Source: Neolecta irregularis DAH-3 (Eukaryota). From it: a stretch of 20,000 nucleotides of DNA. The notes under the pieces were generated by a model. The model was not told the origin of the DNA, searched no databases, and was given only the letters and a program-made list of their open reading frames with translations. The translations under genes and the position numbers were made by a program. The stretch covers positions 48,888 through 68,887 of the forward strand of contig LXFE01000243.1 of NCBI GenBank assembly GCA_001929475.1, in the 5' to 3' direction. Positions 1,798-17,467 of the stretch are shown here, piece by piece. Each line of letters begins with the position of its first letter. The stretch's first letter is position 1.

Positions 1798-3292
1798 ATG
1801 TGCTCGCTCAAACATCAACCGGTACCTGAGAAGAAGGTATCGAATCGCAGAAACATCTCTGCAAAGGCAGTTACTAGGTGAGGATTAATTCATCTCTTGA
1901 GGCTAATCAATTAGAATCGTCTTCGTTGCATTAATTCTTGATCTCTTGGCATTCACTCTTATTCTTCCATTGGTACATCTCTACATTTTGTGATCTGTTC
2001 AGAAATTAGTTTCCACGGATGATTGAATACTACCTCGTTCAAGAACTTTCACATCCATCGATACTGAGCGAAATCCTTAAATTTCTAAACTCTCTTAAAC
2101 CCTCTTCTTTACAACACGAGAAATGGGATACGGTGTTACTTGGAGGAGTAGTTGGAAGTCTTTTCTCGTTGCTGCAATGCGTTGCGAGCCCGATCATTGG
2201 GTCATTAAGTGACCGAGGTGGCCGAAGACGAACATTATTACTGACAATGGTAAGCGTTCTCCATGATTCGATAGCGTTGACACCAAGTTTGGGAATATTC
2301 TGAGTTGTTCATTATGGCTGTTTGCATCGAACTTTTATATATTTCTCGCGTCTCGAATCGTCGGTGGCTTAAGTGAAGGAAACGTACAATTAAGTATTGC
2401 AATTATCTCTGATATAACAACATCGGACACGCGTTCTAGAGGCCTTGTTCGTATTTTCCTGACTGTTGTTAATATTTAGGCTATGGTTGGTATAGCCTTT
2501 GCTATTTCGTTCACAATTGGACCAGCTCTTGGAGCATACTTTGCTCACTTTCAAGCTGATTCGTTGCCAACTCCATTTGCCTGCTCAGCGTTGATTGCAC
2601 TCGGTTTGCTGATCATTGAGACGCTTTTCATTGCCTACGCATTACCAGAAACGATGCCAAAGTCCCAAGAAATCAAGCAGCAGACTGCTGTCTCAGAATC
2701 CCAAACTTTAGAGCTCGAGAAGCTTGGATGGATTCATTTCGGTCATCTCTTGTTCTTCTCGGGATTAGAGTTCTCGCTTACGGCATACTCGCTTATTATC
2801 ATATACTAATTCAAACAGTTCCTAACCTTTGACTTGTTTTCTTATACTTCAGCTCAAAATGGAAAGTTACTGGGCTTCATCGGTCTTTTTAGTACTCTCA
2901 TTCAAGGATTTCTGCGCCGCACTGCAATCACAGATAAAACTCTTGTTTATACAGGTCTTTTTTCGTGTTTCTTCTCATTTATCCTTCTTTCGTTGACGAA
3001 ATCCGAGACAACACTCTATCTCTCTGCCTCACTTCTTGCGATCGTTAGTGCAACCGTGGTCAATAATCTAAATAGTCTTGCAAGTAAAATGGCTGATGTT
3101 GAACGACGCGGGAAAGAAATGGGAGGATTTCGGGCTATGGGGCAATTCGGACGAGCGCTTGGGCCAATCTTATGTTGTGGAATTTACTGGAGGATCGGAA
3201 AGGAAGGTGCATATCTTTTGGGTGCAGTGGGTTTGGCATTTGTGATTGCGGGATTATGGACTTTAGATGTGAAAAAGTCCAAGATTCCTTGA
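1798..3292 (+). CDS. MFS transporter, MFSD10/TETRAN (tetracycline-efflux-like) family, about 437 aa
   Basis: Exons 1798-1877, 1915-1972, 2010-2249, 2288-2446, 2480-2782, 2819-3292 splice in frame. Motifs: VFVALILDLLAFTLILPL, GSLSDRGGRR (MFS motif A), SRIVGGLSEGNVQL, FSGLEFSLTFLT. Intron 5 (2783-2818) is GC-AG. Confidence 0.9.
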
Positions 3293-3904
3293 GAAACAGT
3301 ACGTTTTAATTAAGTTGACCGATGTTGTTTTTTAAATTTGGTTATTATTACACCATGAAGTTCTTCAAGTCTGACGAATACTCTTTGATACTTTCTACTA
3401 ATTCCATGATGGCAGATCTTCCATATCATGAAAACAAGGGCTCCTTTTGTTCAAATTTTCAGTTTCTGAGTTCTCTCGTGCTTAATACAGGTTGAGAATG
3501 TTGAAACCTGACTGCTTTGGGGACCCTGGCAGTCAAATACAAATTTTTAATGCTAACCTTTTGCATCTTTTTGGAAAGAATGCTCCTGATGAGCATATTT
3601 TTCTGACAGGTATTGCCATCAACCTTGTCTTACAATTGAAGGACAAATATAAGATAAAAAGACAATTCTAAATAACGAAGTAAGTAGTATTTCGTATAAT
3701 TACCACTGCACCAACATTCAGAGCCATAAAATGATCTAAAAGATTTGCCAGTTCTACAAACATCATGTTATAATGCAGATATACTCGAAAACTTCCCTCG
3801 CTTCGTTTCGTCATAATGACCAAAAACCCCACAAAAACTTACAAATTTGAAAAAAGAGATGGAAAACTATGTCCATTGAAAAACCCCGATGTTTGCCTTA
3901 CCCA

Positions 3905-6900
3905 TCATACCTTCCCAGTCTTGTCCATGTTCATACCAACACCCTTATCCTGACCGGAAATCCGTGCAAGTACAACTTTCATCTTTTCTAGTAATTCAGG
4001 AATACGGTATGGTTTTGTCACAAAATCATCCATTCCAGCAGCGATCATTTTATCGATTTGTTCTTTTCGAGCGTTGGCACTTACCGCGATTGCAGGTACA
4101 TGACCGCAAAGTTCACCTTTTTGTTCCATTTCGCGAATCTTACGGACGCATGTTATTCCATCCATGACCTTTTTGGTCAACTCTAAATAAAGAAAGGACA
4201 AAGTTTTACCGGCATTTCTACGTCAACAAGACAGATATCCAGAGGAAAAGCATCGTCCAGGGCACTACTCCGGAATTTAGACTTTGCGATTTGTTCGAGT
4301 GCCTCTTGGCCATGATTGGCAACGTATGTTGTCCATCCGATTTGATTCAACTGTTTTCGAAGAATCCGCTGATTAATTACATTGTCTTCGACAATCAACA
4401 CGTGTAGGTCTGACAAGTTTAAAAGAGTGAAATTGTAGCTCGATTGATTTAATTGAAATGCATCCACTAATTTTGGCGAAGTTGAGACTACCGGTAATGA
4501 ATTCATCGATTTATCATCTGGGTTTGATCCACGTTGTGCCACGATATAGAAAGCAAAAGTCGATCCTTGACCTTCTACGGAAGATACTGTAATCTCGCCA
4601 CCTTGAAGTTCAACCAATTTCCGGCATATAAAGAGGCCTAAATATTAGGCGTACTGAGATTTCAAATATACCAAGTCCACTACCACCATACTTGACATGA
4701 GTCTTTGGGGTAGCTTGCATAAATCTTTGGAAAAGGATTGCCCGTTCGCCCTCTTTAAGTCCAGACCCTGTATCCGTGACCGAAAAAATTAAATATATCG
4801 GGTTCTCGACTAGTATAGTGCATTGGTTGATCGTCGAATCCGGAAGTGAAGGTCGTTCGGTTGATGCGCTAATGTTGAGTTTGATTAGCCTATGTGGTCT
4901 CTTATCCGTGAATTCTAAATAAATAAGTTCATAAAACTATAAGGAAATTGTACTTATGGCGTTTGTAAACAAATTGATGAGAACCTGATTGAATCGACTA
5001 GGGTCAGCTTTTACCCAACAGATACCTAATTCAGTATAACTTTTGTCAAAATCCAACTCAGATGCGATTTGCTTCGACTGTAATTCTGCCTCAAACATCT
5101 TCAATACCCCTTCCACACATTCCTTTAGCTGGAAATCGACAGGTGTAACTAACAATAAATTTGAATCGACTTTAGATAGCGTCAATATATCATTGGTAAT
5201 TCGTCTCATATGTGTTGTGCAAAGAACTATTGTTTTCATATCTAAAATATTTTCGTTGACTTTCCGAGCGATATCGATTGAAGAGAAAGATTTACGAGAA
5301 GATACCATTTGTAAAAGATTGTGTAGGCTCTCAACGACAAAATCGACCGTCTGTATGATGGCACCGAGAGGATTTCTCATTTCATGGGAAGTCATGTCGA
5401 TAAAATATTCCTGTTGCCGTTTCCGTTCAATTCTTGATGTCAGAAGGAGGCACATGGATGAAATCTTACGCTTCTTCAGCCCTCTTTTGTTGATATTTTT
5501 CTGAGTTTTTTCGTTCAGATACGTTCATTATACAACCGGTAACTCCTATTATTTGACCATGATGGTCATATTCAGGTGCTGAAGAAGCGATTGTCCATCG
5601 TTCTTTACCTTGGTATGGGGTCTTCCAACGATATTCTAGCCTTCTAAATTTTCGTGATTAGTATGCTTTGGAAGAAACGAACTGCTGCTCTCCACGGAAA
5701 CACTTTTCCCAACTTGACTTTACTAGCTTCAAATCATCCGGATGTATGCTGTCCATCCATTCTGTTAATGGCTGGGATTTTGGGTTGCCAGAAATTTCCG
5801 ACCACGCTTGGTTGACGTAAGATAATGCTCCTGATGAATCGGCTATGTATATTCCAGCAGGACAAATCTCTGCCATGCGAGTGAACTTCATTTCTGATTG
5901 CTTCAACTCTTTTGTTGTTTGAGCTAGCTGCCTTTGCAACTCGATGCCATTTTGACGACTGAGTTCAGTAATTTCGTTGACTCTTAGGGATAAGACTGAT
6001 GATTTAGCGGGAAGGGCATACCGTTTGACATCTTCTTCGAAGAGTTGTACTCGACCCATTCCAGTTGCCAGTTGTCGTGACAATAACTCTAGAAAGATTT
6101 GATAAACTTCATCAAAAGGACGTCGAGGATTCAAGCCCATCATCAACATGCCGCTTGGCCGATCGCCTTCATTTGCAAATATTGGGTATATGACAGCTCG
6201 TTGAACCGGAATATCCCACCCTCTCCTACATTGATCCGACCCAGCACAGAATTCCTCAACGTTTTCGAATAAAACATAAGAAATGGATTTGTGTGCGGTG
6301 ATGTAGTATTCTGCAAGAGGGGATGAAGCATCTATAAGATAGGGTATCAAATTATGGTTAGAGGGAAGTCCTATCGATGCACTGAGGACAAAACTGAGTT
6401 GCTGGATTTTATAGATACAGGCGAAAGGGATATCGTAAGGATTGGAAAGCAACGATTCAAGCGCTACCTGATAAAAGTTATCGGCTTCCTGGGCGGTGGC
6501 TAGAGGATCACTAATGGACTCGCACTCGATATACCTGCCATCTGCCCGAGATTTCTCAGTGTTTGAATATGGCGTTCTGCGATTACTCGCTTTGTACTAT
6601 CGAAAGCAGGGTTCAATAGCCCGCCGACTTTTCCGTCTGGATGCAAGACGGGAACAAGGCTCCATGAAAAATAGCATTCTTCGAGGAACCCGTGACGATT
6701 TATGAAGAGGAGATCGTCGTCTTTGGTAGAAGGTTTGGCGTTGTAGAATGCATTTTCCATTGTCTCTTCCATAAGTTGCCAGATCTGCAGGGCTATCAGC
6801 ACTAGACGTCTCGTATGGCTAGGCTACCTCTGGCCAGCCCTCGCGATAGAGCTTCCCTAGAAGGGATGGGTGTTTTTGGGCTGTTAATTCAGTGTATGGC

Positions 6901-7427
6901 TTGTTGTACAGGATGACAAGGTCTTCTCCCCAGTACAAAGCGGTTGGAAAGGGACAGGCGAGGACGAAGCTGCATATTGTTCTGAGGGCAATAGGCCACT
7001 CGCTGGGATCACCTATGGAGGTATTTGCCCAGTCCACGCTTTCCAGCAGCTTTATGTGGTTTTGGAATGCCTGCGACTGCTTATGGAGGTTCACTACGCT
7101 GGGGAACCCTGTGCTCTCCGCGGGTTGGGTTTCGCCAGTGACGATGCTCGAGCCGCGCACCAGCGTCTTTGTCCACCGAATCTGCGAGTGATGAGCAGCG
7201 AATAGCCCTGCAGGCGTGGAATAGTGCACTGGCGACATTTTGTCGAACAGGAAATGTGCAAACGGGTCTGACAGCGCGACCAACGAAAATATGCAGGATG
7301 CGCCCAGATATTCTTTGAACCGCGGGTTCGAATATGCCGTGCGCTTAGTCGTGCCGCACACAACCAGCGCAGGCACCGGAAGTGCATCCAGATATTCGAC
7401 CAGCAGCAGATCGCAAGGCCCGTGCAT
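3905..7427 (-). CDS. Hybrid sensor histidine kinase (PAS-GAF-PAS-HisKA-HATPase-REC), about 1071 aa, resembling fungal group XI HHKs
   Basis: Nine exons (7427-6828, 6784-6535, 6499-6022, 5982-5683, 5643-5470, 5432-4954, 4914-4672, 4637-4210, 4168-3905) total 3216 nt in frame. H-box DMTSHEMRNPL, N-box QVLINLFTNAIKFT, G-boxes DTGSG and GGSGLGL, receiver VEDN...DVEMPVMDG...TKP. Confidence 0.93.
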
Positions 7428-7618
7428 TTGCAGGACTGGCGCTAGAAAAAAGAATTTTTTTATTGCGGCTTAGAAAGGATGGCAGAAGGCAAAAGGGCGA
7501 TTCGGATTTCGGTTTCCTCGGGTTCGGCGCGACCCCGGCGGGTGATTATAGGGTAGGGGCAGCGCCACTCCCAAACCTCGAGGTGCGCCCTTTGATCCAA
7601 ACCATTCCACACAAACGC
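7428..7618. promoter_or_regulatory. Short divergent (bidirectional) promoter region between the histidine kinase and the RnpA-like gene
   Basis: Only 191 bp separate the two head-to-head ATGs. Contains an A/T tract (7445-7462) and a GC-rich core. Confidence 0.5.
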
Positions 7619-8553
7619 ATGAATCCGCCATTTATTCTCAAAGGCATCCCCGCATTCCAGGGCCTCGAGCGTTTTTTTGCAATGCCCTCGAAAATCCGCA
7701 CACCTGCTTTTAGCCTCCGCGTCCGCTTTCGCGACCCCAGCGACAAAAATCCCGTTCGAGTCTTGGTTGTCGCCAGCAAGAAACAGATTTCAAACAGTGC
7801 TGTTGTCAGAAATCGTGTGCGGAGGAGGATAATGGAGGCCGTACGAGTCTCCCTCAGAGAAACAAACCTCTCTTTTGTCTTTGGTGTGCCATCCATCTTC
7901 GTCCCTCTCGTTGACCCGCAAAAGACTCTCCACGTGATCTTTTCTTCATCTCGCTCGTTGAAGTGTATTCCATGGAGTGGACTGCTCTGCTTCACTATGT
8001 CAGAAATGCAATCGTCCAGACGGAGACGCAAAATCCCAACCTCACAAGACGTGTGACGTTGCCTAGCCGTGTAACGTCGCGCAACCAAAAGCCCGTGCCA
8101 AAAGGACAGGAATCTCTGAATAAAAGTCCAGTAAAACACAGATCAGAGTCGATAGACTATGTCATGACAAACTGGGCTAAACCGTTCTCCTCATATTTTT
8201 CCAACAAACCAGAAAAATTTAAACCTCGTTCTCCAGGCGACTTTAATTGTACTAAAAGAGACCGGAATTGTACAAATCCATCTCCGGAGCCACCTCAAAG
8301 ATACGAGAATACGGAAAAACAGATCTCCAGGTCATCACCAGGAAAAGAAAGATCACCACCTAAACAAACAGAGACACTGCAATGGTCCAATTTTTCTCGT
8401 TCAAGTAACACAAGAGATCAAAACGATAGCCATATAAGAAACCTCGACTCACTGTCTCCGCACTGGGAACAGCCTTCCTGGTCATGCAAAGGTCCAGAAA
8501 ATATCATGAACATCCTCAAAAGAGGAACAAGGTCACAAGGAAGAAGAGACTAG
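7619..8553 (+). CDS. Bacterial-type ribonuclease P protein (RnpA-like) domain with long low-complexity C-terminal extension, about 297 aa
   Basis: Exon 1 (7619-7883) encodes RVLVVASKKQISNSAVVRNRVRRRIMEAVR, the RnpA RNR motif (K...AV.RNR..R...E). A 41-nt GT-AG intron (7884-7924) joins it in frame to DSPRDLFFISLVEVYSMEWTALLHYVRNAI, consistent with the final RnpA strand and helix. An S/P/R/K-rich tail follows to TAG at 8551-8553. Confidence 0.8.
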
Positions 8554-8989
8554 ACTTAGCAAGATCTTGTCTCGTTCCCCAATCAAGGGTTGGAAAAATT
8601 GACATCTTGCTCATTATTTATCTACTGGTATAAAAGCGAAATTCTGGCGTTTACCGCCACATCAACCAAACAGCATGTGGGGACTTAATAATGTCCCATG
8701 ATCAGACAGCACCGGCACTCCTCATCGCAAACCACCATGACTCACCCAGCGATTCAAGGCTCACTGACGTCAATGCTGATCAAAACTGTCTGACTGTGGC
8801 AAACAGTACCACCGAGTCAATTCAGGACGGTCACAAGCTTCGCCACTCGAGAGGTATGCAGGGAGGCAAACAGAGATGAGGAAGCGCATGTGCCAGTTCT
8901 TCTATCAAGCCAGGCCAAACCGGAGCAAGAATATACGTAGTTGTCTTTATTTCCTGAATCGCGATCGTATATTCCCAGCGAAGCCTCCT

Positions 8990-9960
8990 GGGAGGCAAGT
9001 CCGGACACCCAACTCTCCCACAGCAGTCTGTTTTTTTGCATGAAATTACCCTCACAACAACATGCAGCAGTATCAAGCGAGATAATTTCAAAACTTTGCT
9101 ACTAGTAACTCGCAAGGAACTCCCAGTGTAAGGATATACCCAATCGGTATACCTAACCAATACAGTAATCAGGCGTTGGTAGAATATGAAGCGGAGTTCG
9201 TAGTGATACCTATCCTGACTCACAACATTTAGACTAGAAATATATCCTGGTCTTATTTGTAATTTCTGGCGATAAGCTTACACCCAGTTCCAGAAATCCC
9301 TCTCTTCACCATGGAATTGCAAAAAACAGTAAAGATGCAAAATATCTATACGTTGGTGTTCGTGATCTGGAAAAGCCAGGTCAATGTCTAATATTTACAC
9401 CGAATATGTTGTGCTTGTCCTTCAAAGACTCTTTCAGCGCGGTTAAGCGGTAGGCCAATTATCCTTTTTTGTGGTTCCGATGAATGTTAAAACGTCCACT
9501 AGAATCTCTATTCTAAAGCACTCAAATTAGGCATTCTGGGATGTAAGCTTTCTCCTACTTATATATCCCATAGTCAAGATCCGAAGCCGAGCTTATTCAC
9601 GCAGAGAATTCCAGGAGTGGAAATACCTGCTCATAACCAAAGACCCGCCGATACCCCGGGAATAAACCAGTCGCAGATGTCGTCGAATTGATATTTGGCG
9701 CAGCTTACCTTAGCGGTGCAGTTGAAGAAGGTTTTCATGTTGCGTAAGTGTTTGGGTTATCAGTGTCTGGTGCTGGTAATTTTGAGTATCTTGGCGAAAC
9801 AGCTGGCATTATATCCTTATGGTAATTTAATCGGATACTTTGTAGTTAACGCGACAAGGAATACGTCAACTAATGTAGGCAAGACTTGAGCTCGGTGATG
9901 ATACTTGAACTCTAGCCATATTTCTCTTTCATAACCCAAACTATTCAAATGCCCAGAAGT
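8990..9960 (+). pseudogene. Dicer-like pseudogene (platform, RNase IIIa and RNase IIIb remnants), LTR-disrupted and internally deleted
   Basis: Collinear fragments: VFLHEITLTTT...FKTLLLVTRKELP[solo LTR]VPEIPLFT (platform-like, 9030-9310); NLYSKALKLGILG (from 9503); NKPVADVVELIFGAAYLSGAVEEGFHVA*VFGL (from 9661, RNase IIIa end with in-frame TAA); NLIGYF (about 9824) and RLE-LGD/ILEL (9882-9912, degenerate RNase III signature with indels). Boundaries approximate. Confidence 0.8.
9127..9282 (+). mobile_element. Solo LTR (156 bp), LTR retrotransposon
   Basis: Termini TGTAAG...CTTACA with a perfect 5-bp TSD CCCAG (9122-9126 and 9283-9287). Similar to 11849-12042 and the fragments at 17590-17970. 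Strand is relative to the family consensus. Confidence 0.88.
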
Positions 9961-10076
9961 AGGCCTACGATATACAAACGTTCCCTATTCTAAAATAAAT
10001 TATTCCTACAAAAAGAAACTTGCCAGCAGCAGGCTTGAAAGTTTTACAAGTGACGTCCATTCTGTCTCTTAGAGGA

Positions 10077-11651
10077 CTAATGAATCAAAAACCTAAACGC
10101 AGGGTCCTTCAATGCAAAGTGCCATTTGAGAGCATCCAGAGTCGGATCAAATTTTATTGCTTGACCCAGTCCCTTTATGTCAATATAAAAGAACTCTTCG
10201 TCATTTCGATAATATTTAGCAGGTAATTTGTATCGACCATGACTTGGGCAATTGAGGCATTGAGAAATTCGATATTTCATAAGTGCCTTTTGCATTTGTG
10301 AATCATATCCAAAGTCCGAGGGATAAAGCATGTCGACCTCGATCCATTCCATCTTCGGACAATGATAAGCTAGCAAGATGAAAACTTCGATGTCGAAATG
10401 AAATGGCCCTGTCGAAAGATTCTCAAGCTTTGTACAACCAATAAGAGATTTCAAGGATTTTGCCTGAAAAAAACTCTCTTGACTATTGAAAGAGACCGCT
10501 TTGAGATCTTCCAACTCTCCGAGGCGGTTGATCCAAACTTCCGGGAAGTCGAAATACGGGCCGCACATGATTTCGATGATTTCGATACCGTTATTGGCAT
10601 GAAGTAGAGAATGACAGAGATTCTCAGCACTGTCTATTGCGCCGACTGTGAATTTACGAAGATTTGAATGAGTTATCACCCACGGGATTTCCCGAGTGGC
10701 CTCTGATAATATGCAGGAATAAATTTGAAAAGTCTGCAGGCATGGTAGCTGCAACAATGTCTCACGAATATCGGAAGGAAACGTAATACTAAACAAGGAA
10801 AGCTCTTTGAGAGTATTTGCAACGCTCTTTAGTTCTGGGAGGTGAAGACGACGATCGAAATCATGCATGTCTCGACCGAGATGTAACTCCATCAACGACG
10901 ACGAGGTAGTAATCTCCCTAGTATCTTCATCATCCTGGCTCCACCAGACCCTTGCTATTTTCAAATTTTCTGAATTTTGAATAAAGAGCTCGATCCGGGC
11001 TTCCGGATATTCAATGTCGATTGAGATGACCTTCTTCGTAAGGCAACCTAGAAACGACCAAAGTGCTTGTCTTCCGGCAGGTGTATTGAGTGGATGCCCT
11101 GATATTGTTGTCCAATGCCCAGAAGAGTGAGAAGCCTTCATAACGAGTTTCACGGTCTTTATATTGGAATTGGATATATAGGACGCAAGGTTTTGCCATT
11201 CGACGAAACTGCGATTATAAAAAGGTCTATGCATATATCGAGCAGACCACAGTAGTTCTAGATCGATGTGAGTGATTCTTGGCAAACTTCGTAGTAACTG
11301 GATAGCTTCGAAAGTTGATTCGGTAGTAGGGAGTCCAAAATCATGAAAATAGGATAACGCGATTCTATTGACATAGGTTTCGATGTCCGACCTGTTTGCG
11401 AGCTTCCGAAGATTCAAAATGTGACGGTGATTGTGCAGACCTCTGTGCATATAGTCATGTGTGGGCCTCCTGAAATGACGAGAGATATCTGCCCAAAATA
11501 CGCGCTTGGTGAGATAGTGCCATTCTCTGCAGACAAGACGAACTGAGCATACGTCAAGGAGATCGACGCTCTCCAGGATAGTGCATTTCAATTCGACTGG
11601 CAGTTTGGCGAATGATAAGTTGTCTTCGATAATTCCATGATTACTGCACAT
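10077..11651 (-). CDS. F-box protein with LRR/RNI-like C-terminal region, 524 aa, intronless
   Basis: N-terminal F-box FAKLPVELKCTILESVDLLDVCSVRLVCREWHYLT, followed by repeated LxxLxL segments (TLKELSLFSI, LPCLQTFQIYSC, CTKLENLST, CPKMEWIEV). Confidence 0.85.
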   Translation of the reverse strand: MCSNHGIIEDNLSFAKLPVELKCTILESVDLLDVCSVRLVCREWHYLTKRVFWADISRHFRRPTHDYMHRGLHNHRHILNLRKLANRSDIETYVNRIALSYFHDFGLPTTESTFEAIQLLRSLPRITHIDLELLWSARYMHRPFYNRSFVEWQNLASYISNSNIKTVKLVMKASHSSGHWTTISGHPLNTPAGRQALWSFLGCLTKKVISIDIEYPEARIELFIQNSENLKIARVWWSQDDEDTREITTSSSLMELHLGRDMHDFDRRLHLPELKSVANTLKELSLFSITFPSDIRETLLQLPCLQTFQIYSCILSEATREIPWVITHSNLRKFTVGAIDSAENLCHSLLHANNGIEIIEIMCGPYFDFPEVWINRLGELEDLKAVSFNSQESFFQAKSLKSLIGCTKLENLSTGPFHFDIEVFILLAYHCPKMEWIEVDMLYPSDFGYDSQMQKALMKYRISQCLNCPSHGRYKLPAKYYRNDEEFFYIDIKGLGQAIKFDPTLDALKWHFALKDPAFRFLIH

Positions 11652-11848
11652 GACATCCAGTTCGTGTGTCGAACTTAGCGGGTTGGCCCCGTGAGAATAG
11701 CTGGAGCTGAGGAACGAGGTGGTGGGTGCCGTCGGAAGTCAAACTCATGTTGTTATATTAGGACCCTGATAGTGCGTAGGGACTTTCGCAGCCACAAATC
11801 TTGCCGGAGTTCCGTCCCGAGAATTGCTTAGGAATGCGCCAAGCCAAC

Positions 11849-12042
11849 TGTAAGGATATGCCCTTTGGGTATATATTACCAATACGGCAAGGTGGCTTGG
11901 CGGGAAGTATATAGAGGCGGAAGTTAGATATTCCTAGCCAATTACGAATACTTAGGCTAGGTATGTCCCTTTGTAAGAAGTACGAATACTTAGGCTAGTT
12001 ATAACACTTGGTCTTATCGTACTTCTAAGCGCATAGCTTACA
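11849..12042 (+). mobile_element. Solo LTR (194 bp), same family as 9127-9282
   Basis: TGTAAG...CTTACA termini with a perfect TSD CCAAC (11844-11848 and 12043-12047). Internal direct repeat TACGAATACTTAGGCTAG at 11943 and 11981. Confidence 0.88.
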
Positions 12043-12446
12043 CCAACTATCTAAGCACCTTGCACATCAAGTACCCAGCACTACTAGAATACTTCCAACC
12101 ACGTTCAAGTCGGGAATCATTGCACTTATATCAGTTTAATGGATTTATTTCTTACTATATCATTGCATTCCCCATTGGGATAGCACTCGCTTTCATGGCA
12201 GGAGTTAATAACTTCTGAGTACTTGGATTAACGAGGAAGGTGGGGATTGTACGGATTATCAGGTGGATTCGCTTTGGCTCTAACATTGTAAGTCACTCAA
12301 ACCTCCAATGGTTGATCTCTTCAGAGTTGCAACAGCAAAAGTATTTGTAATAAGCCGTACAAAATGGGGAGCCCTAGTACGTAAAGTTGAAGATCGTTCG
12401 CGAGAAAGCGAAGAAAATGGAGATTTAGAAAGACCAGCTGAGCTGA

Positions 12447-14223
12447 TCATTCAACTAAATGCCATTGATACTCCAAAACTCCATCCCTTTTATATCTTAC
12501 ATTTTCCCTTAAGCTCTTCTTCTGAGAAATCCAATCATGGTCTATTTTCCAATTTACTCTTCGAGCTAGATCACAGACGATCTCATCGCACGGACCAAGG
12601 AGGCAGACGTCAAAATTCATATGTGTCACAGGCGTTTTTGAAATATAAATTTGCGGAATCATAGACAATATTCCAATCGTTTCGGCCACCGGTGAAACCT
12701 TTAGTGATGTTCCTGTTGTCAGCATTTGTTGAAAGTGAAGATACCTATTGCGATTAGGAGATCGGCTTTTTGTTTGTCCTTTTGGTGGAGAGTATCAAAA
12801 AATTCCAAGGGAAGATTCTCGTGGAAAAATATGATGTCAGGCTGGTGAAGTCAAGTCAAGCTCGATACCGGACAGAAATATACTTTCATAACACCCTGAG
12901 ATCGCTCCTCTTCTTCATCACTTTCATTCTTCCTTTTTCTTCTTTTTCTTTTCATTTTCCCATTGGCGTGTTCCCGCATTGTCTTGGTACCTTCTTTAAT
13001 GCACGCTGGGTTCGAGCAGTATGCAACAAGACCTGCTAGTATATCCCTTTCTATTTCCTTTCCAGGGACCTGTTGATGACACTGCATGCAAGAAGCGGTA
13101 GCGAAAGACCCGTGACATTGTACAATCTTCTCTCGAGGGAGACCACTTTTAAATTCCAAGTTATCAATATTCTGGGTGTAAATCCGTAGCAATTTGTGTT
13201 GTTCATAAAGGACGCGTAGGAAGGCATGCGTTGGGCTTACCCTTTCTGTTTTGGGATATATTTTGTGGGCATAACGATAGAAAAGTCTTCATGTTATACC
13301 TTGGTATTAGGCAGAGGATACGTTGGATCCTGTTTGAATATATCATAGTTGAAGATTTCCTGGAATCAGTAGATTCAGACTGGAATAGCACTTGAGGATC
13401 TTGAACTTCACCGGAACCAGCGACATCAGCATAAATACCACGCGAGCTTCGAAAATCAGGAATTCCGAGGCTTGTGCTGATACCTAGATTGGCATAAGAA
13501 AAGTTCTCTAGGAATTATTAAAGACCTGCACCTACGAGAACAACAATGTTCTTGCAGCGTTCCAGTAGTTTGACAACGTCGTCTGGCGTCCGGTATTCCT
13601 TTATTCGATCTCTTTTCCTCAGTTCTCGAAGAATCAGTCTTTTGAGCATCCTTTTGAGACTAAGTGTGTTTAGTAAACTTTATCAGTAAATTACGTACTC
13701 TGTCTCTTCAAAATTCATACAAGATTCAAACTAATTCATGAGCATGAGACTAATGGGTTAGATGCCATGTTATATCCGAAGGCGCTGAACAATTTCAAAA
13801 TCGGGATTTCCTGTTCTTTTAAGTGGTAATCCAGAAATTCCTCCCATTTTAGATCGCGCACTTTACATCTGATGTCAGTGGCCTCTTCCTTGGTGAAAGC
13901 CTCAGGATCTAAATGAATTCAGCCGGAAGAGAGATATTACGATAGGCTATACGATCAACAGTTTCGGCGGGATCGCCCAGATTTTCGACCAAATCATCAA
14001 CATAGGTGTTCGTGGACACATTTGACTCAGTGTCCGAATCTTCTGGTGATACTGACTTATACCTCTTGTGAGAAGAAGAGTATTCGCAGCTCGAATTAAT
14101 TTGGGATCGCTTGGAAACCTGGACGGCAGTGGAAAGCGAGATATTCGAATCGGGTGTTAGATGCTCTCTTGTAGCGAAACCGTTTTCTTGCAAAGGTCTT
14201 TCTGTTCCGGTATTGGAAATCAT
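12447..14223 (-). CDS. SIR2: NAD-dependent histone deacetylase, Sir2/Hst1 (class Ia sirtuin)
   Basis: Spliced motifs: [59 protein letters not shown] (catalytic His, Zn), CSNPAC, GVMKPDIIFFHENLP, GTSLKVSPVAE. Eight short introns; 13731-13765 is GC-AG and the first donor is ambiguous. Confidence 0.92.
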
Positions 14224-15565: not shown

Positions 15566-17467
15566 ATGATAGAGATAGATTCCAACTCTGCCTCTCATAA
15601 CTTTCAGTCTGAAACCGAAACCGAGAAAGACAATTCCCGGAATGTTGATCGTAGACAACAAGATCTCAGACTAGTCTTATCAGGAAAAAAACTGGCTCTG
15701 GCATTCACTGGCCTTTTACTCTCAATCTTGCTGGTTGCTTTGGACCAGACTATCGTGGCCACTGCTCTCCCAGTAATTGCAAGCCAGTTTAGTGCTTTGG
15801 ATCAAGTCACATGGTAACTCTTGAATCTAGCAGCAACTGATCAATAGGATTGCCTCTGCATATTTCCTGACACAAAGTGGATTTCTATTGCTCTATGGAA
15901 AGCTTCTAACAATATTCGATCGGAAATGGGTTTATTTAGTTGCTATCATGATTTTTGAAAGTAAGTTCACTCGGCTAAAAAGTTATTCTAATGATTATTG
16001 AAAAGTCGGATCACTCTTTTGCGGAATTGCTATGAATGCTACTTTCTTAATATTTGGAAGAGCTGTTGCTGGGATAGGTGCGGCAGGAATCTTTGTTTCT
16101 TGTATCACAATGTTCGTTCTCCAACTCGGGCCAAACCGAAAACATTAACTCCAGATAGTATCTCTGAGATCACTCTCCTCAAAGATCGTCCAAAGCTTTT
16201 TGGCGCCTTTGGAGCAGTTTTTGGTGCTTCCAGCGTAATTGGTCCTCTCATGGGAGGAGCTTTCACGGATCATATTAGCTGGAGATGGTGTTTCTTCATC
16301 AATGTAATCAACCTTTGCCAAGAAGGAATCTGACAGTAGCTGCCGATCGGAGCGATAACCTTAACGACAGTCGGAATGATCATCAAACGGAACCCCCCAG
16401 AGGGTGTCATATTGTCACAGAAGCTTAGAGAACTTGATTACATTGGTGCTGTCTTGGCGCTAGGAATGATCACTTCCCTTGTTTTACCTCTCCAGTGGGG
16501 TGGAAACTTATATCCTTGGAACTCGAAACAAGTAATCATTTCCCTCTGCTTTGTGGCAGTTTTGATCCCTGTCTTTGCCATCTGGGAAAAGTATGGAGTC
16601 GGGAATGAAAGAGCTATTCTTCCTATGAAATTCTTTTCGAATCGAACGGTGTATGGCATTGAACATACTGTGGTCACTGACCGGTTAGCGTGGCTGCTTG
16701 TATAGAGAATTTTTTCATTTTCTTTGGTTTACTTCTTACGGTCTACTATCTCCCATTACAATTCCAAGCTGTCAAGGTATACAACCGTATCCTCAGCAGT
16801 TTTTAATGTCCAGGGCCACTCTGCAACACAGTCTGGGATCGATATTCTTCCCTATATGTTATCCAATGTTCTAGCAGCTGGAATATCTGGATTTGTAATC
16901 TCAGCTACTGGTCACTATTGGCCGTTCCTGATTTTTGGTCCCTTGATAGTCGCTATTGGGGCTGGATTAATGTATACATTTTCGTATATCTCTACGACTG
17001 CCCAATTGATTGGATATCAAATTATCTTCGGGGCTGGACTTGGATTCGTAATGCAGAATACAGTATTTTCTTTGTTATCTGTGATTTTAACCAGCGAGAT
17101 GATCGCGGTACAGGCAGACGTTGACCATCATGATATTCCTCAAGCTAGTGCTCTTTGCTCGTTTATGCAGTTAGTTGGTGGCGTTCTGGGAATTGCAGTT
17201 GCAGGAACTATTTTCTCTAACGAATTAGTATCTCACTTACAAAGAGTGGCACCGGATGCGCCTTTGGTTGCGATTCAACAAAGTGTCACTGTTATCAGGC
17301 ATCTTGATCCGGCAATGCAGGAAGTCGTGAAGAAGGCTTATGTCCGTGCATTGGACTATGTTTATCTAACCGGCGTACCTGTAGGTATTATTGCAAGCAT
17401 CTGTGGTCTCTTTATTAAGAGACATAATATCAAAGGAAAAGAAATGATGACGACAGGTGGGGCATAG
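15566..17467 (+). CDS. MFS drug:H+ antiporter, DHA2 (14-TMS) family
   Basis: Motifs [15 protein letters not shown] (motif D1), [63 protein letters not shown]. Seven short introns are inferred (e.g. 15814-15847, 15961-16005, 16112-16158, 17063-17098). Confidence 0.92.

Follow-up and report, generated by a model that had tools for sequence, protein, structure and literature searches.

A nuclear, intron-containing gene for a bacterial-type RNase P protein in a probably fungal genome

The window analysed here is a stretch of 20,000 nucleotides from Neolecta irregularis DAH-3 (contig LXFE01000243.1, positions 48,888 to 68,887 of the forward strand), and on its plus strand, at positions 7619 to 8553, lies a gene whose product begins with the domain of RnpA, bacterial RNase P's protein subunit (C5 or P protein). 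Profile comparisons, structural models and assembled reads support the conclusion that this is a bacterial-type RnpA gene which is nuclear, contains an intron and is transcribed. The first-pass annotation of this DNA had proposed a nuclear, intron-containing RnpA-like gene, and this proposal holds, as exon 1 passes the Pfam threshold of the family, the RNR motif is intact and the coordinates of the predicted intron are exact. The gene appears to encode an intact and expressed RnpA-type RNA-binding domain, RNA binding itself being deduced from the sequence. Contigs of two sequencing runs from the same study, X1 (genomic, and the probable source of the window) and X2 (carrying the label 'DNA?', which is a guess), bear on the structure of the gene, which comprises the following elements in window coordinates:

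7428..7618, no strand assigned: spacer of 191 bp shared with a divergent histidine-kinase gene, inside a local G+C peak
7619..7883, plus strand: exon 1, residues 1-88 and the first base of codon 89, coding within the RnpA domain for its N-terminal helix, for three strands and for the RNR helix
7775..7846, plus strand: RNR motif region in the exon 1 translation, residues 53-76, SKKQISNSAVVRNRVRRRIMEAVR
7884..7924, plus strand: spliceosomal intron of 41 nt, GT..AG, phase 1, skipped in the X2 contig and kept in X1
7925..8040, plus strand: start of exon 2, residues 89 to ~127, with the modelled fourth strand (DLFFISL) and the C-terminal helix
8041..8550, plus strand: C-terminal tail of ~170 residues, an open frame with no known domain
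8551..8553, plus strand: stop codon TAG

From the start ATG at 7619 on the plus strand the frame reads MNPPF...SKKQISNSAVVRNRVRRRIMEAVRVSLRETNLSFVF, and splicing yields a product of 297 amino acids (34.5 kDa, pI 10.65) in which an RnpA domain of ~125 amino acids is followed by a basic tail of ~170 amino acids. It had been noticed in the first-pass annotation that the open reading frame (ORF) track splits the gene in two, and the two ORFs, 7382..8056 and 7963..8553, indeed lie in different frames. The frame of exon 2 is open for 208 codons, with 5-12 stops in each of the other five frames, and as none of 20000 composition-matched shuffles kept this frame open we regard the tail as coding. The tail is rich in S, R, P, N and K with a pI of ~10.3, and a Pfam scan of it gave no match at E <= 0.01, the single row returned being Ribonuclease_3 with an E-value of 0.094. 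On the plus strand between 7382 and 7618 the frame of the gene is also open (79 sense codons and a TAG) and contains no in-frame ATG; this stretch has an Arg-rich start and near-cognate codons, e.g. CTG at 7436, TTG at 7463 and GTG at 7583, from which a non-AUG start might add a presequence, and a short upstream ORF would start from an out-of-frame ATG at 7479. The spacer 7428..7618 presumably contains a bidirectional promoter as well as the 5' untranslated region.

The assignment to RnpA is carried by exon 1. Its 88 amino acids matched the Pfam family PF00825 (Ribonuclease_P) with 37.2 bits at a gathering cut-off of 22.3 (E-value 3.3e-9, profile positions 16-76 of 109), confirming the membership that the first-pass annotation had wanted to see checked, and the unspliced ORF scored 36.8 bits. 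The RNR motif, described as clear in that annotation, proved to be intact, with R64-N65-R66 and R68-R69-R70 all present. In an alignment of 79 sequences (A2) R69 is invariant and R47, K55, A61, R64 and N65 are nearly invariant, and all six are found in the window protein. A search of the PDB sequences with exon 1 as a single sequence returned no RnpA, and a profile of exon 1 and its nearest relatives matched 11 solved RnpA proteins, the best with an E-value of 1.6e-12. In the ESM Atlas exon 1 led to generic bacterial RnpA clusters only, and the neighbouring histidine kinase to GAF clusters. A hidden Markov model (HMM) of 70 bacterial RnpA sequences aligned the spliced protein over positions 14-111 of 119, whereas the unspliced product was aligned only up to position 77.

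Structural models were compared with the RnpA fold. The AlphaFold2 model of exon 1, calculated with 79 aligned sequences, had a predicted local distance difference test score (pLDDT) of 78.5, and a single-sequence AlphaFold2 model of the unspliced product one of 35.7. Searching the PDB with the exon 1 model in Foldseek placed RNase P proteins at all of ranks 1-11 (query TM-score, TMq, 0.64-0.74; root-mean-square deviation 1.9-2.8 Å over 73-82 columns), with E. coli RnpA (2LJP) at rank 15 (TMq 0.63), the E-values of the RnpA matches being only 0.04-0.6. The comparison with RnpA structures that had been suggested for this gene gave TMq 0.63-0.74, a range that covers the bacterial proteins from B. 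subtilis (1A6F), T. maritima (1NZ0/3Q1Q), S. aureus (6D1R) and E. coli (2LJP). Exon 1 and exon 2 were also modelled as two separate chains, giving a score of 0.65 (median of three runs) when the best of three controls reached 0.02; this is a mark that 51 of 78 solved complexes attained, as did 2 of 108 mismatched pairs. The runs agreed in at least 91% of their contacts, with a partner pLDDT of at least 75. In these models residues 4-10 of exon 2 (DLFFISL) contact strands 31-36 and 47-51 of exon 1, and residues 21-25 contact the RNR helix at exon 1 residues 70-75, so that exon 2 is modelled to supply the missing strand and helix of RnpA, packed on exon 1. This two-chain result indicates likeness to RnpA and may reflect the memory of the model, RnpA structures being solved. 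The earlier idea that removal of the intron completes an RnpA-like fold is supported by the two-chain model (0.65 versus 0.02) but not by sequence similarity (-1.7 bits for exon 2 on an HMM of the C-terminal part of RnpA only).

Sequence alone does not single out the intron: an open frame results from any of 39 GT..AG pairs between 7797 and 8091, and 7884-7924 has weak splice signals (GTGTGC at the 5' site, a TTGAC branch-like site, and AAAG at the 3' site). The intron was identified by a contig of run X2 (4680 nt) that aligned to positions 5683-8877 of the window in five colinear pieces. Its jump at 7882/7924 omits 41 nt and, with the cut moved one base to the right, has GT..AG ends and corresponds to 7884-7924, exactly the 41-nt intron that the first-pass annotation had predicted. 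The same contig skips four CT..AC stretches (39, 39, 35 and 43 nt) in the histidine-kinase gene on the minus strand, the first of these joints lying 44 nt from the end of the compared stretch, and in the unique part of the alignment, 5683-8681, three bases distinguish it from the window. Because five short GT-AG introns are precisely removed from two oppositely oriented genes in one contig, we read X2 as an unstranded assembly of spliced transcripts. The introns concerned, 5644-5682, 5983-6021, 6500-6534 and 6785-6827 on the minus strand and 7884-7924 on the plus strand, all measure 35-43 nt, hence 41 nt is a normal intron size for this organism; introns of 35-43 nt are shorter than usual in most fungi. 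Their 5' sites are degenerate (GTTCGT, GTATGC, GTATAT, GTAGCC and GTGTGC), and CTAAT, CTGAT or TTGAC-like branch sites are found near their 3' ends.

A genomic contig of run X1 spans 6458-8847 without a gap or a difference and retains the intron stretch, at a depth of 444 over the gene compared with 369-390 for the unique flanks. As the depth matches that of the flanks and the contig is continuous, the gene does not appear to be a contaminant; it is most readily understood as a single-copy gene, resident in the eukaryotic genome, that is transcribed, as judged from the one X2 contig, and spliced as predicted. An artefact (contaminating bacterial DNA, an assembly error or a pseudogene whose frameshift is mistaken for splicing) would find some room in the weak splice signals, in the shortness of 41 nt compared with most fungal introns and in the fact that a 1-base indel gives the same frame change. 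Such an artefact is hard to reconcile with one X1 contig that crosses 6458-8847 without differences, at a depth equal to that of the flanking eukaryotic genes, and with an X2 contig from which exactly 41 nt with GT..AG ends are missing, as are four nearby introns of 35-43 nt, and we regard it as close to refuted.

Based on these data we propose that the RnpA gene entered the lineage from a bacterium, the nearest known type being that of the Saccharibacteria/Patescibacteria. The captured gene would then have been domesticated, gaining an intron, a eukaryotic tail and a divergent promoter shared with its neighbour, and the protein would serve as cofactor of mitochondrial RNase P. Its partner would be the mitochondrially encoded rnpB, the sole RNA of suitable type in a fungus; to our knowledge fungi have no other RNA of bacterial type. 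The origin, the binding of RNA, the mitochondrial location and the partner RNA are what we infer, and the complete sequence of events, bacterial transfer, domestication and recruitment as mitochondrial RNase P cofactor, is a tentative reading that falls somewhat short of an even chance. A role in mitochondrial RNase P, whichever origin the gene has, is slightly better than an even proposition. The specific scenario in which a fungus captured RnpA from a Saccharibacteria-like member of the candidate phyla radiation and now employs it as cofactor of a mitochondrial rnpB ribozyme we consider rather unlikely. Excerpts of two papers provide background for a partnership of this kind: bacterial RnpA proteins are interchangeable between species and work with heterologous P RNAs (PMC4919922), and nuclear-encoded RnpA accompanies organellar rnpB in prasinophytes and in Andalucia (PMC4919922, PMC7050145).

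The relatives of the window protein recovered by HMMER are of bacterial size. A HMMER search of 1.84 billion cluster representatives gave nine proteins at E <= 0.001, namely the query itself, two spurious matches and six relatives of 91-137 amino acids with 44-52% identity over ~47-67 residues; in a tree of 157 rows three of the six lay within the Saccharibacteria clade and the other three at the base of it. The spurious matches, P0004 (2015 amino acids) and P0005 (815 amino acids), are internally repetitive, were matched in 6 and 10 stretches, respectively, and were rejected as relatives. When one genome per prokaryotic species was scanned with a motif derived from the query, 64 loci were obtained, which are by record title 44 Saccharibacteria/Saccharimonadota, 11 unclassified, 5 Pseudomonadota, 2 Uhrbacteria, 1 Chloroflexota and 1 Bacillota. 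The genomes of the Chloroflexota and the Bacillota locus, L015 and L021 (G003 and G004, bins titled Limnocylindrales and Bacillota; 0.7-1.4 Mb), fall into the same phylum sample as a Saccharibacteria genome, and L017, from a bin titled Nevskiaceae, is an RnpA of the Saccharibacteria type; the record titles of these three loci are probably mislabels. A profile search with alignment A1 for longer proteins with an RnpA domain returned 13, each of at least 241 amino acids. One protein from this search, P0018 (264 amino acids, 4 contigs), combines an RnpA domain with an N-terminal extension of ~150 amino acids that has an Ala/Arg/Ser-rich start, and it could be another eukaryotic organelle-targeted RnpA.

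For the phylogenetic analysis unbiased samples of RnpA were added from the phylum and the class to which an alphaproteobacterial genome belongs, as well as from the phylum of a Saccharibacteria genome; L141, whose genome is unpublished, and five loci that were duplicates were excluded. In two quick trees the window protein either came at the base of the Saccharibacteria clade or fell inside it, with Shimodaira-Hasegawa-like approximate likelihood ratio test (SH-aLRT) values of 91-92. A careful maximum likelihood (ML) tree of 97 rows, whose bootstrap had not settled (correlation 0.945), put it inside the 17-row Saccharibacteria set with a support of 100/99, with L064 as sister at 82/54. The scores on group HMMs were 53.9 bits for Saccharibacteria, 42.7 for Alphaproteobacteria, 38.6 for other Patescibacteria and 24.0 for other Pseudomonadota, where true members reach 112-160 bits on the HMM of their own group. 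Approximately unbiased (AU) tests on the two quick trees gave constrained trees that were likelier than the free search, indicating that the quick searches were poor, and were not relied on. Base composition was likewise discarded as a sign of foreign origin, the G+C peak being centred on the shared 5' ends and declining into both divergent genes.

This placement has to be read with care. The Saccharibacteria rows were chosen by the query-derived motif, which biases the tree and the group HMMs towards them, the branch of the window protein is very long (2.3-2.7 changes per column), and the AU test on the careful tree did not reject a grouping with 56 Pseudomonadota rows (log-likelihood 4.84 lower, p-AU 0.413). 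On the sequence comparisons as a whole a Saccharibacteria/Patescibacteria-like donor is favoured. A phylogeny including alphaproteobacterial RnpA, as had been recommended for this gene, thus gave a Saccharibacteria placement at 100/99 and left the placement among Pseudomonadota unrejected. The framing of the gene product as an organellar enzyme of 'ancestral' type is not favoured, as its closest sequences are Saccharibacteria-type and not alphaproteobacterial, though at an AU p-value of 0.413.

That framing corresponds to vertical descent from the mitochondrial endosymbiont, with the same function as RNase P cofactor and with loss, or divergence beyond recognition, in most fungi. It is compatible with the unrejected grouping with Pseudomonadota, which comprises 25 alphaproteobacterial rows as well as L001 and L050 (p 0.413), and with the 42.7 bits on the alphaproteobacterial HMM, which come near the scores of other Proteobacteria on the same HMM (median 48.5). 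Motifs of Alphaproteobacteria, e.g. GNAVVRNRVRRRL, come close to the one in the window too, a threshold of E <= 0.001 against 1.84 billion proteins would miss equally diverged fungal orthologues, and Andalucia godoyi offers a precedent (PMC7050145, excerpts). The best matches of the unbiased search, however, were all of the Saccharibacteria type, the careful ML tree places the protein inside the Saccharibacteria clade at 100/99 (bootstrap correlation 0.945), and the Saccharibacteria HMM scores 53.9 bits versus 42.7 for the alphaproteobacterial one. The library searches revealed no other eukaryotic homologue and the protein has no targeting extension, both of which speak against vertical descent too. 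We consider this origin improbable.

Capture from a bacterium followed by recruitment to mitochondrial RNase P is itself confronted with a number of results that weigh against it. In alignment A1 the protein begins just 5 residues ahead of the bacterial N-termini, implying that no presequence was added, there is no in-frame ATG upstream of 7619, and the AUG context at 7619 is weak, with a C at position -3; the suggestion of the first-pass annotation that the basic N-terminus could double as a targeting signal has lost ground by this 5-residue offset and the missing upstream ATG, though the protein could carry an internal or uncleaved signal. The equivalog model TIGR00188, which that annotation had named beside PF00825, was not reached, exon 1 and the unspliced ORF scoring 30.0 and 30.1 bits at a cut-off of 38.35. 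Splicing brought no gain on the RnpA HMM (53.3 bits for the spliced and 54.3 bits for the unspliced product), and the -1.7 bits of exon 2 on the C-terminal-only HMM were equalled or exceeded by 519 of 1000 shuffles. The unspliced 145-amino-acid product, searched against a word-indexed library of 5.8 billion proteins, retrieved its own record only among 90 candidates, and none of 427 candidates among the longer proteins of that library. Thus no eukaryotic relative emerged from the protein-library searches (5.8 billion proteins; 1.84 billion at E <= 0.001, a threshold that would not pick up orthologues whose divergence equals that between this protein and the bacterial ones), and this absence of fungal relatives counts because a general subunit of fungal mitochondrial RNase P should be widespread. 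Ten of the 13 longer RnpA-domain proteins were inspected; they look like bacterial read-throughs or fusions, and none resembles the tail. X2 and the window differ in only two codons, N196S and S208F, both of them non-synonymous and both in the tail, which may, small as these numbers are, be under weaker constraint. As for the partner RNA, rnpB is patchy in ascomycetes and was not found in basidiomycete or chytrid mitochondrial genomes according to excerpts of a review (PMC3790967).

A captured bacterial gene without any role in RNase P would accommodate many of these observations; its product could be a generic basic RNA-binding protein, be it cytosolic, nuclear or mitochondrial, or the gene could be lineage-specific and drifting to loss. 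Its apparent restriction to one lineage in the library searches, the C-terminal half of the domain without sequence similarity, the very long branch, the absence of a presequence, the two non-synonymous codon differences between X1 and X2 and the long tail without a known domain all fit such a history. Roles beyond RNase P have moreover been proposed for RnpA, as the title of the S. aureus entry 6ov1 speaks of a mutant 'with defective mRNA degradation activity'. A gene drifting to loss is not expected to retain conserved residues, open frames, fold and splicing, yet the six positions of RnpA that are conserved best, the RNR motif among them, are all intact, both exons are open (0/20000 shuffles for exon 2), the halves are confidently modelled as one RnpA-like fold, and the mRNA is correctly spliced in X2. 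A function outside RNase P is accordingly quite possible, though we would not expect it.

Bacterial RnpA is a small single-domain protein of ~14 kDa whose gene usually lies beside rpmH. The window protein resembles it in the Pfam match, the RNR motif and the six most conserved positions, and differs from it in several respects. At 297 amino acids it exceeds the ~115-130 amino acids of bacterial RnpA owing to its tail of ~170 amino acids, it scores below the TIGR00188 cut-off, and the C-terminal third of the domain is without detectable sequence similarity. Its gene is nuclear, is interrupted by a spliceosomal intron and does not lie beside rpmH, yidD or yidC but between a hybrid histidine-kinase and an F-box gene.

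Nuclear genes for RnpA homologues have counterparts in other eukaryotes. The one of the prasinophyte Ostreococcus tauri, reportedly described by Lai et al. in 2011, is likened here by its description in PMC4919922, PMC3858429 and PMC7050145. According to excerpts of PMC4919922 organelle-encoded P RNAs are the partners of the O. tauri protein, which also rescues an rnpA(ts) mutant of E. coli. The window gene differs in belonging to another host lineage, probably a fungus. Andalucia godoyi likewise has a highly diverged, nuclear-encoded RnpA domain with conserved functional residues (PMC7050145, excerpts); there the protein is predicted to be targeted to mitochondria and is paired with a bacterial-type mitochondrial rnpB, whereas the window protein has no N-terminal extension. 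The Andalucia genome is compact with introns of 55-756 nt, while those of the window measure 35-43 nt in a repeat-rich setting, so Andalucia was rejected as the source of the window. A possible functional analogue is Rpm2p of S. cerevisiae, a nuclear-encoded cofactor of a mitochondrially encoded RNase P RNA (PMC4919922, PMC3790967, both in excerpts). Rpm2p shares no homology with the window protein; excerpts of the reviews describe it as a large protein that has no relationship to other RNase P proteins.

The RnpA-like gene is arranged head to head with the gene for a hybrid histidine kinase on the minus strand, their ATGs at 7619 and 7427 being 191 bp apart. One X2 contig runs through both divergent genes, suggesting that their transcripts overlap or are bridged by unspliced reads. 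The G+C content of 200-base windows is 0.52-0.57 from 6800 to 7799, centred on the shared 5' ends, versus ~0.40-0.43 elsewhere, and drops to ~0.40-0.44 deeper inside both genes; at third codon positions (GC3) it is 0.64 in the kinase exon 6828-7427 and 0.56 in exon 1 of the RnpA-like gene, and ~0.36-0.41 further downstream in each gene. Just downstream of the RnpA-like gene, at 8682-9350, a high-copy repeat raises the X1 depth from ~444 to 3800-13400; many diverged short contigs pile up there, and the X2 contig ends inside it at 8877. An Rfam search of the window at the gathering thresholds gave no match. The other genes recognised are:

At least 4183-7427, minus strand: hybrid histidine kinase with GAF/PAS, HisKA and receiver-domain matches and at least 4 short introns
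10077-11651, minus strand: intronless gene for an F-box protein of 524 amino acids
~12854-13514, minus strand: split Sir2-family gene
15995-17467, plus strand: MFS transporter passing the TRI12 'fungal trichothecene efflux pump' family
2010-3292, plus strand: second MFS transporter

This gene content is consistent with a fungus.

In the excerpts available of PMC4919922 and PMC7050145 bacterial-type RnpA of eukaryotes is reported only for prasinophyte algae and for the jakobid Andalucia, and our literature searches found no report of a fungal RnpA. Cryptococcus CNAG_03481 is listed as 'ribonuclease P protein component'; this listing, for which we have not seen the sequence, may be named after yeast Rpm2. 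In a 2012 review, again in excerpts, the proteins of fungal mitochondrial RNase P outside budding yeast are given as unidentified, with Neurospora crassa named as an example, and the seven polypeptides purified from Aspergillus nidulans as never identified (PMC3790967). What is new here is an RnpA family member from a host group new to the family, whose gene contains an intron, encodes a long tail and may have come from a foreign bacterium.

The gene is thus a candidate for the protein part of a fungal mitochondrial RNase P. Its origin bears on how organellar RNase P has been rebuilt, either by keeping the ancestral subunit, with wholesale loss elsewhere, or by replacing it with a foreign bacterial one. 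If the proposed capture and recruitment are correct, the case would amount to the transfer of an RNase P subunit between domains and to the first RNase P holoenzyme of bacterial type known from a fungal mitochondrion, one that would combine an RNA of alphaproteobacterial descent with a protein from an unrelated bacterial phylum. Should the gene have no role in RNase P, it would still clearly exemplify the domestication of a bacterial RNA-binding domain by a eukaryote.

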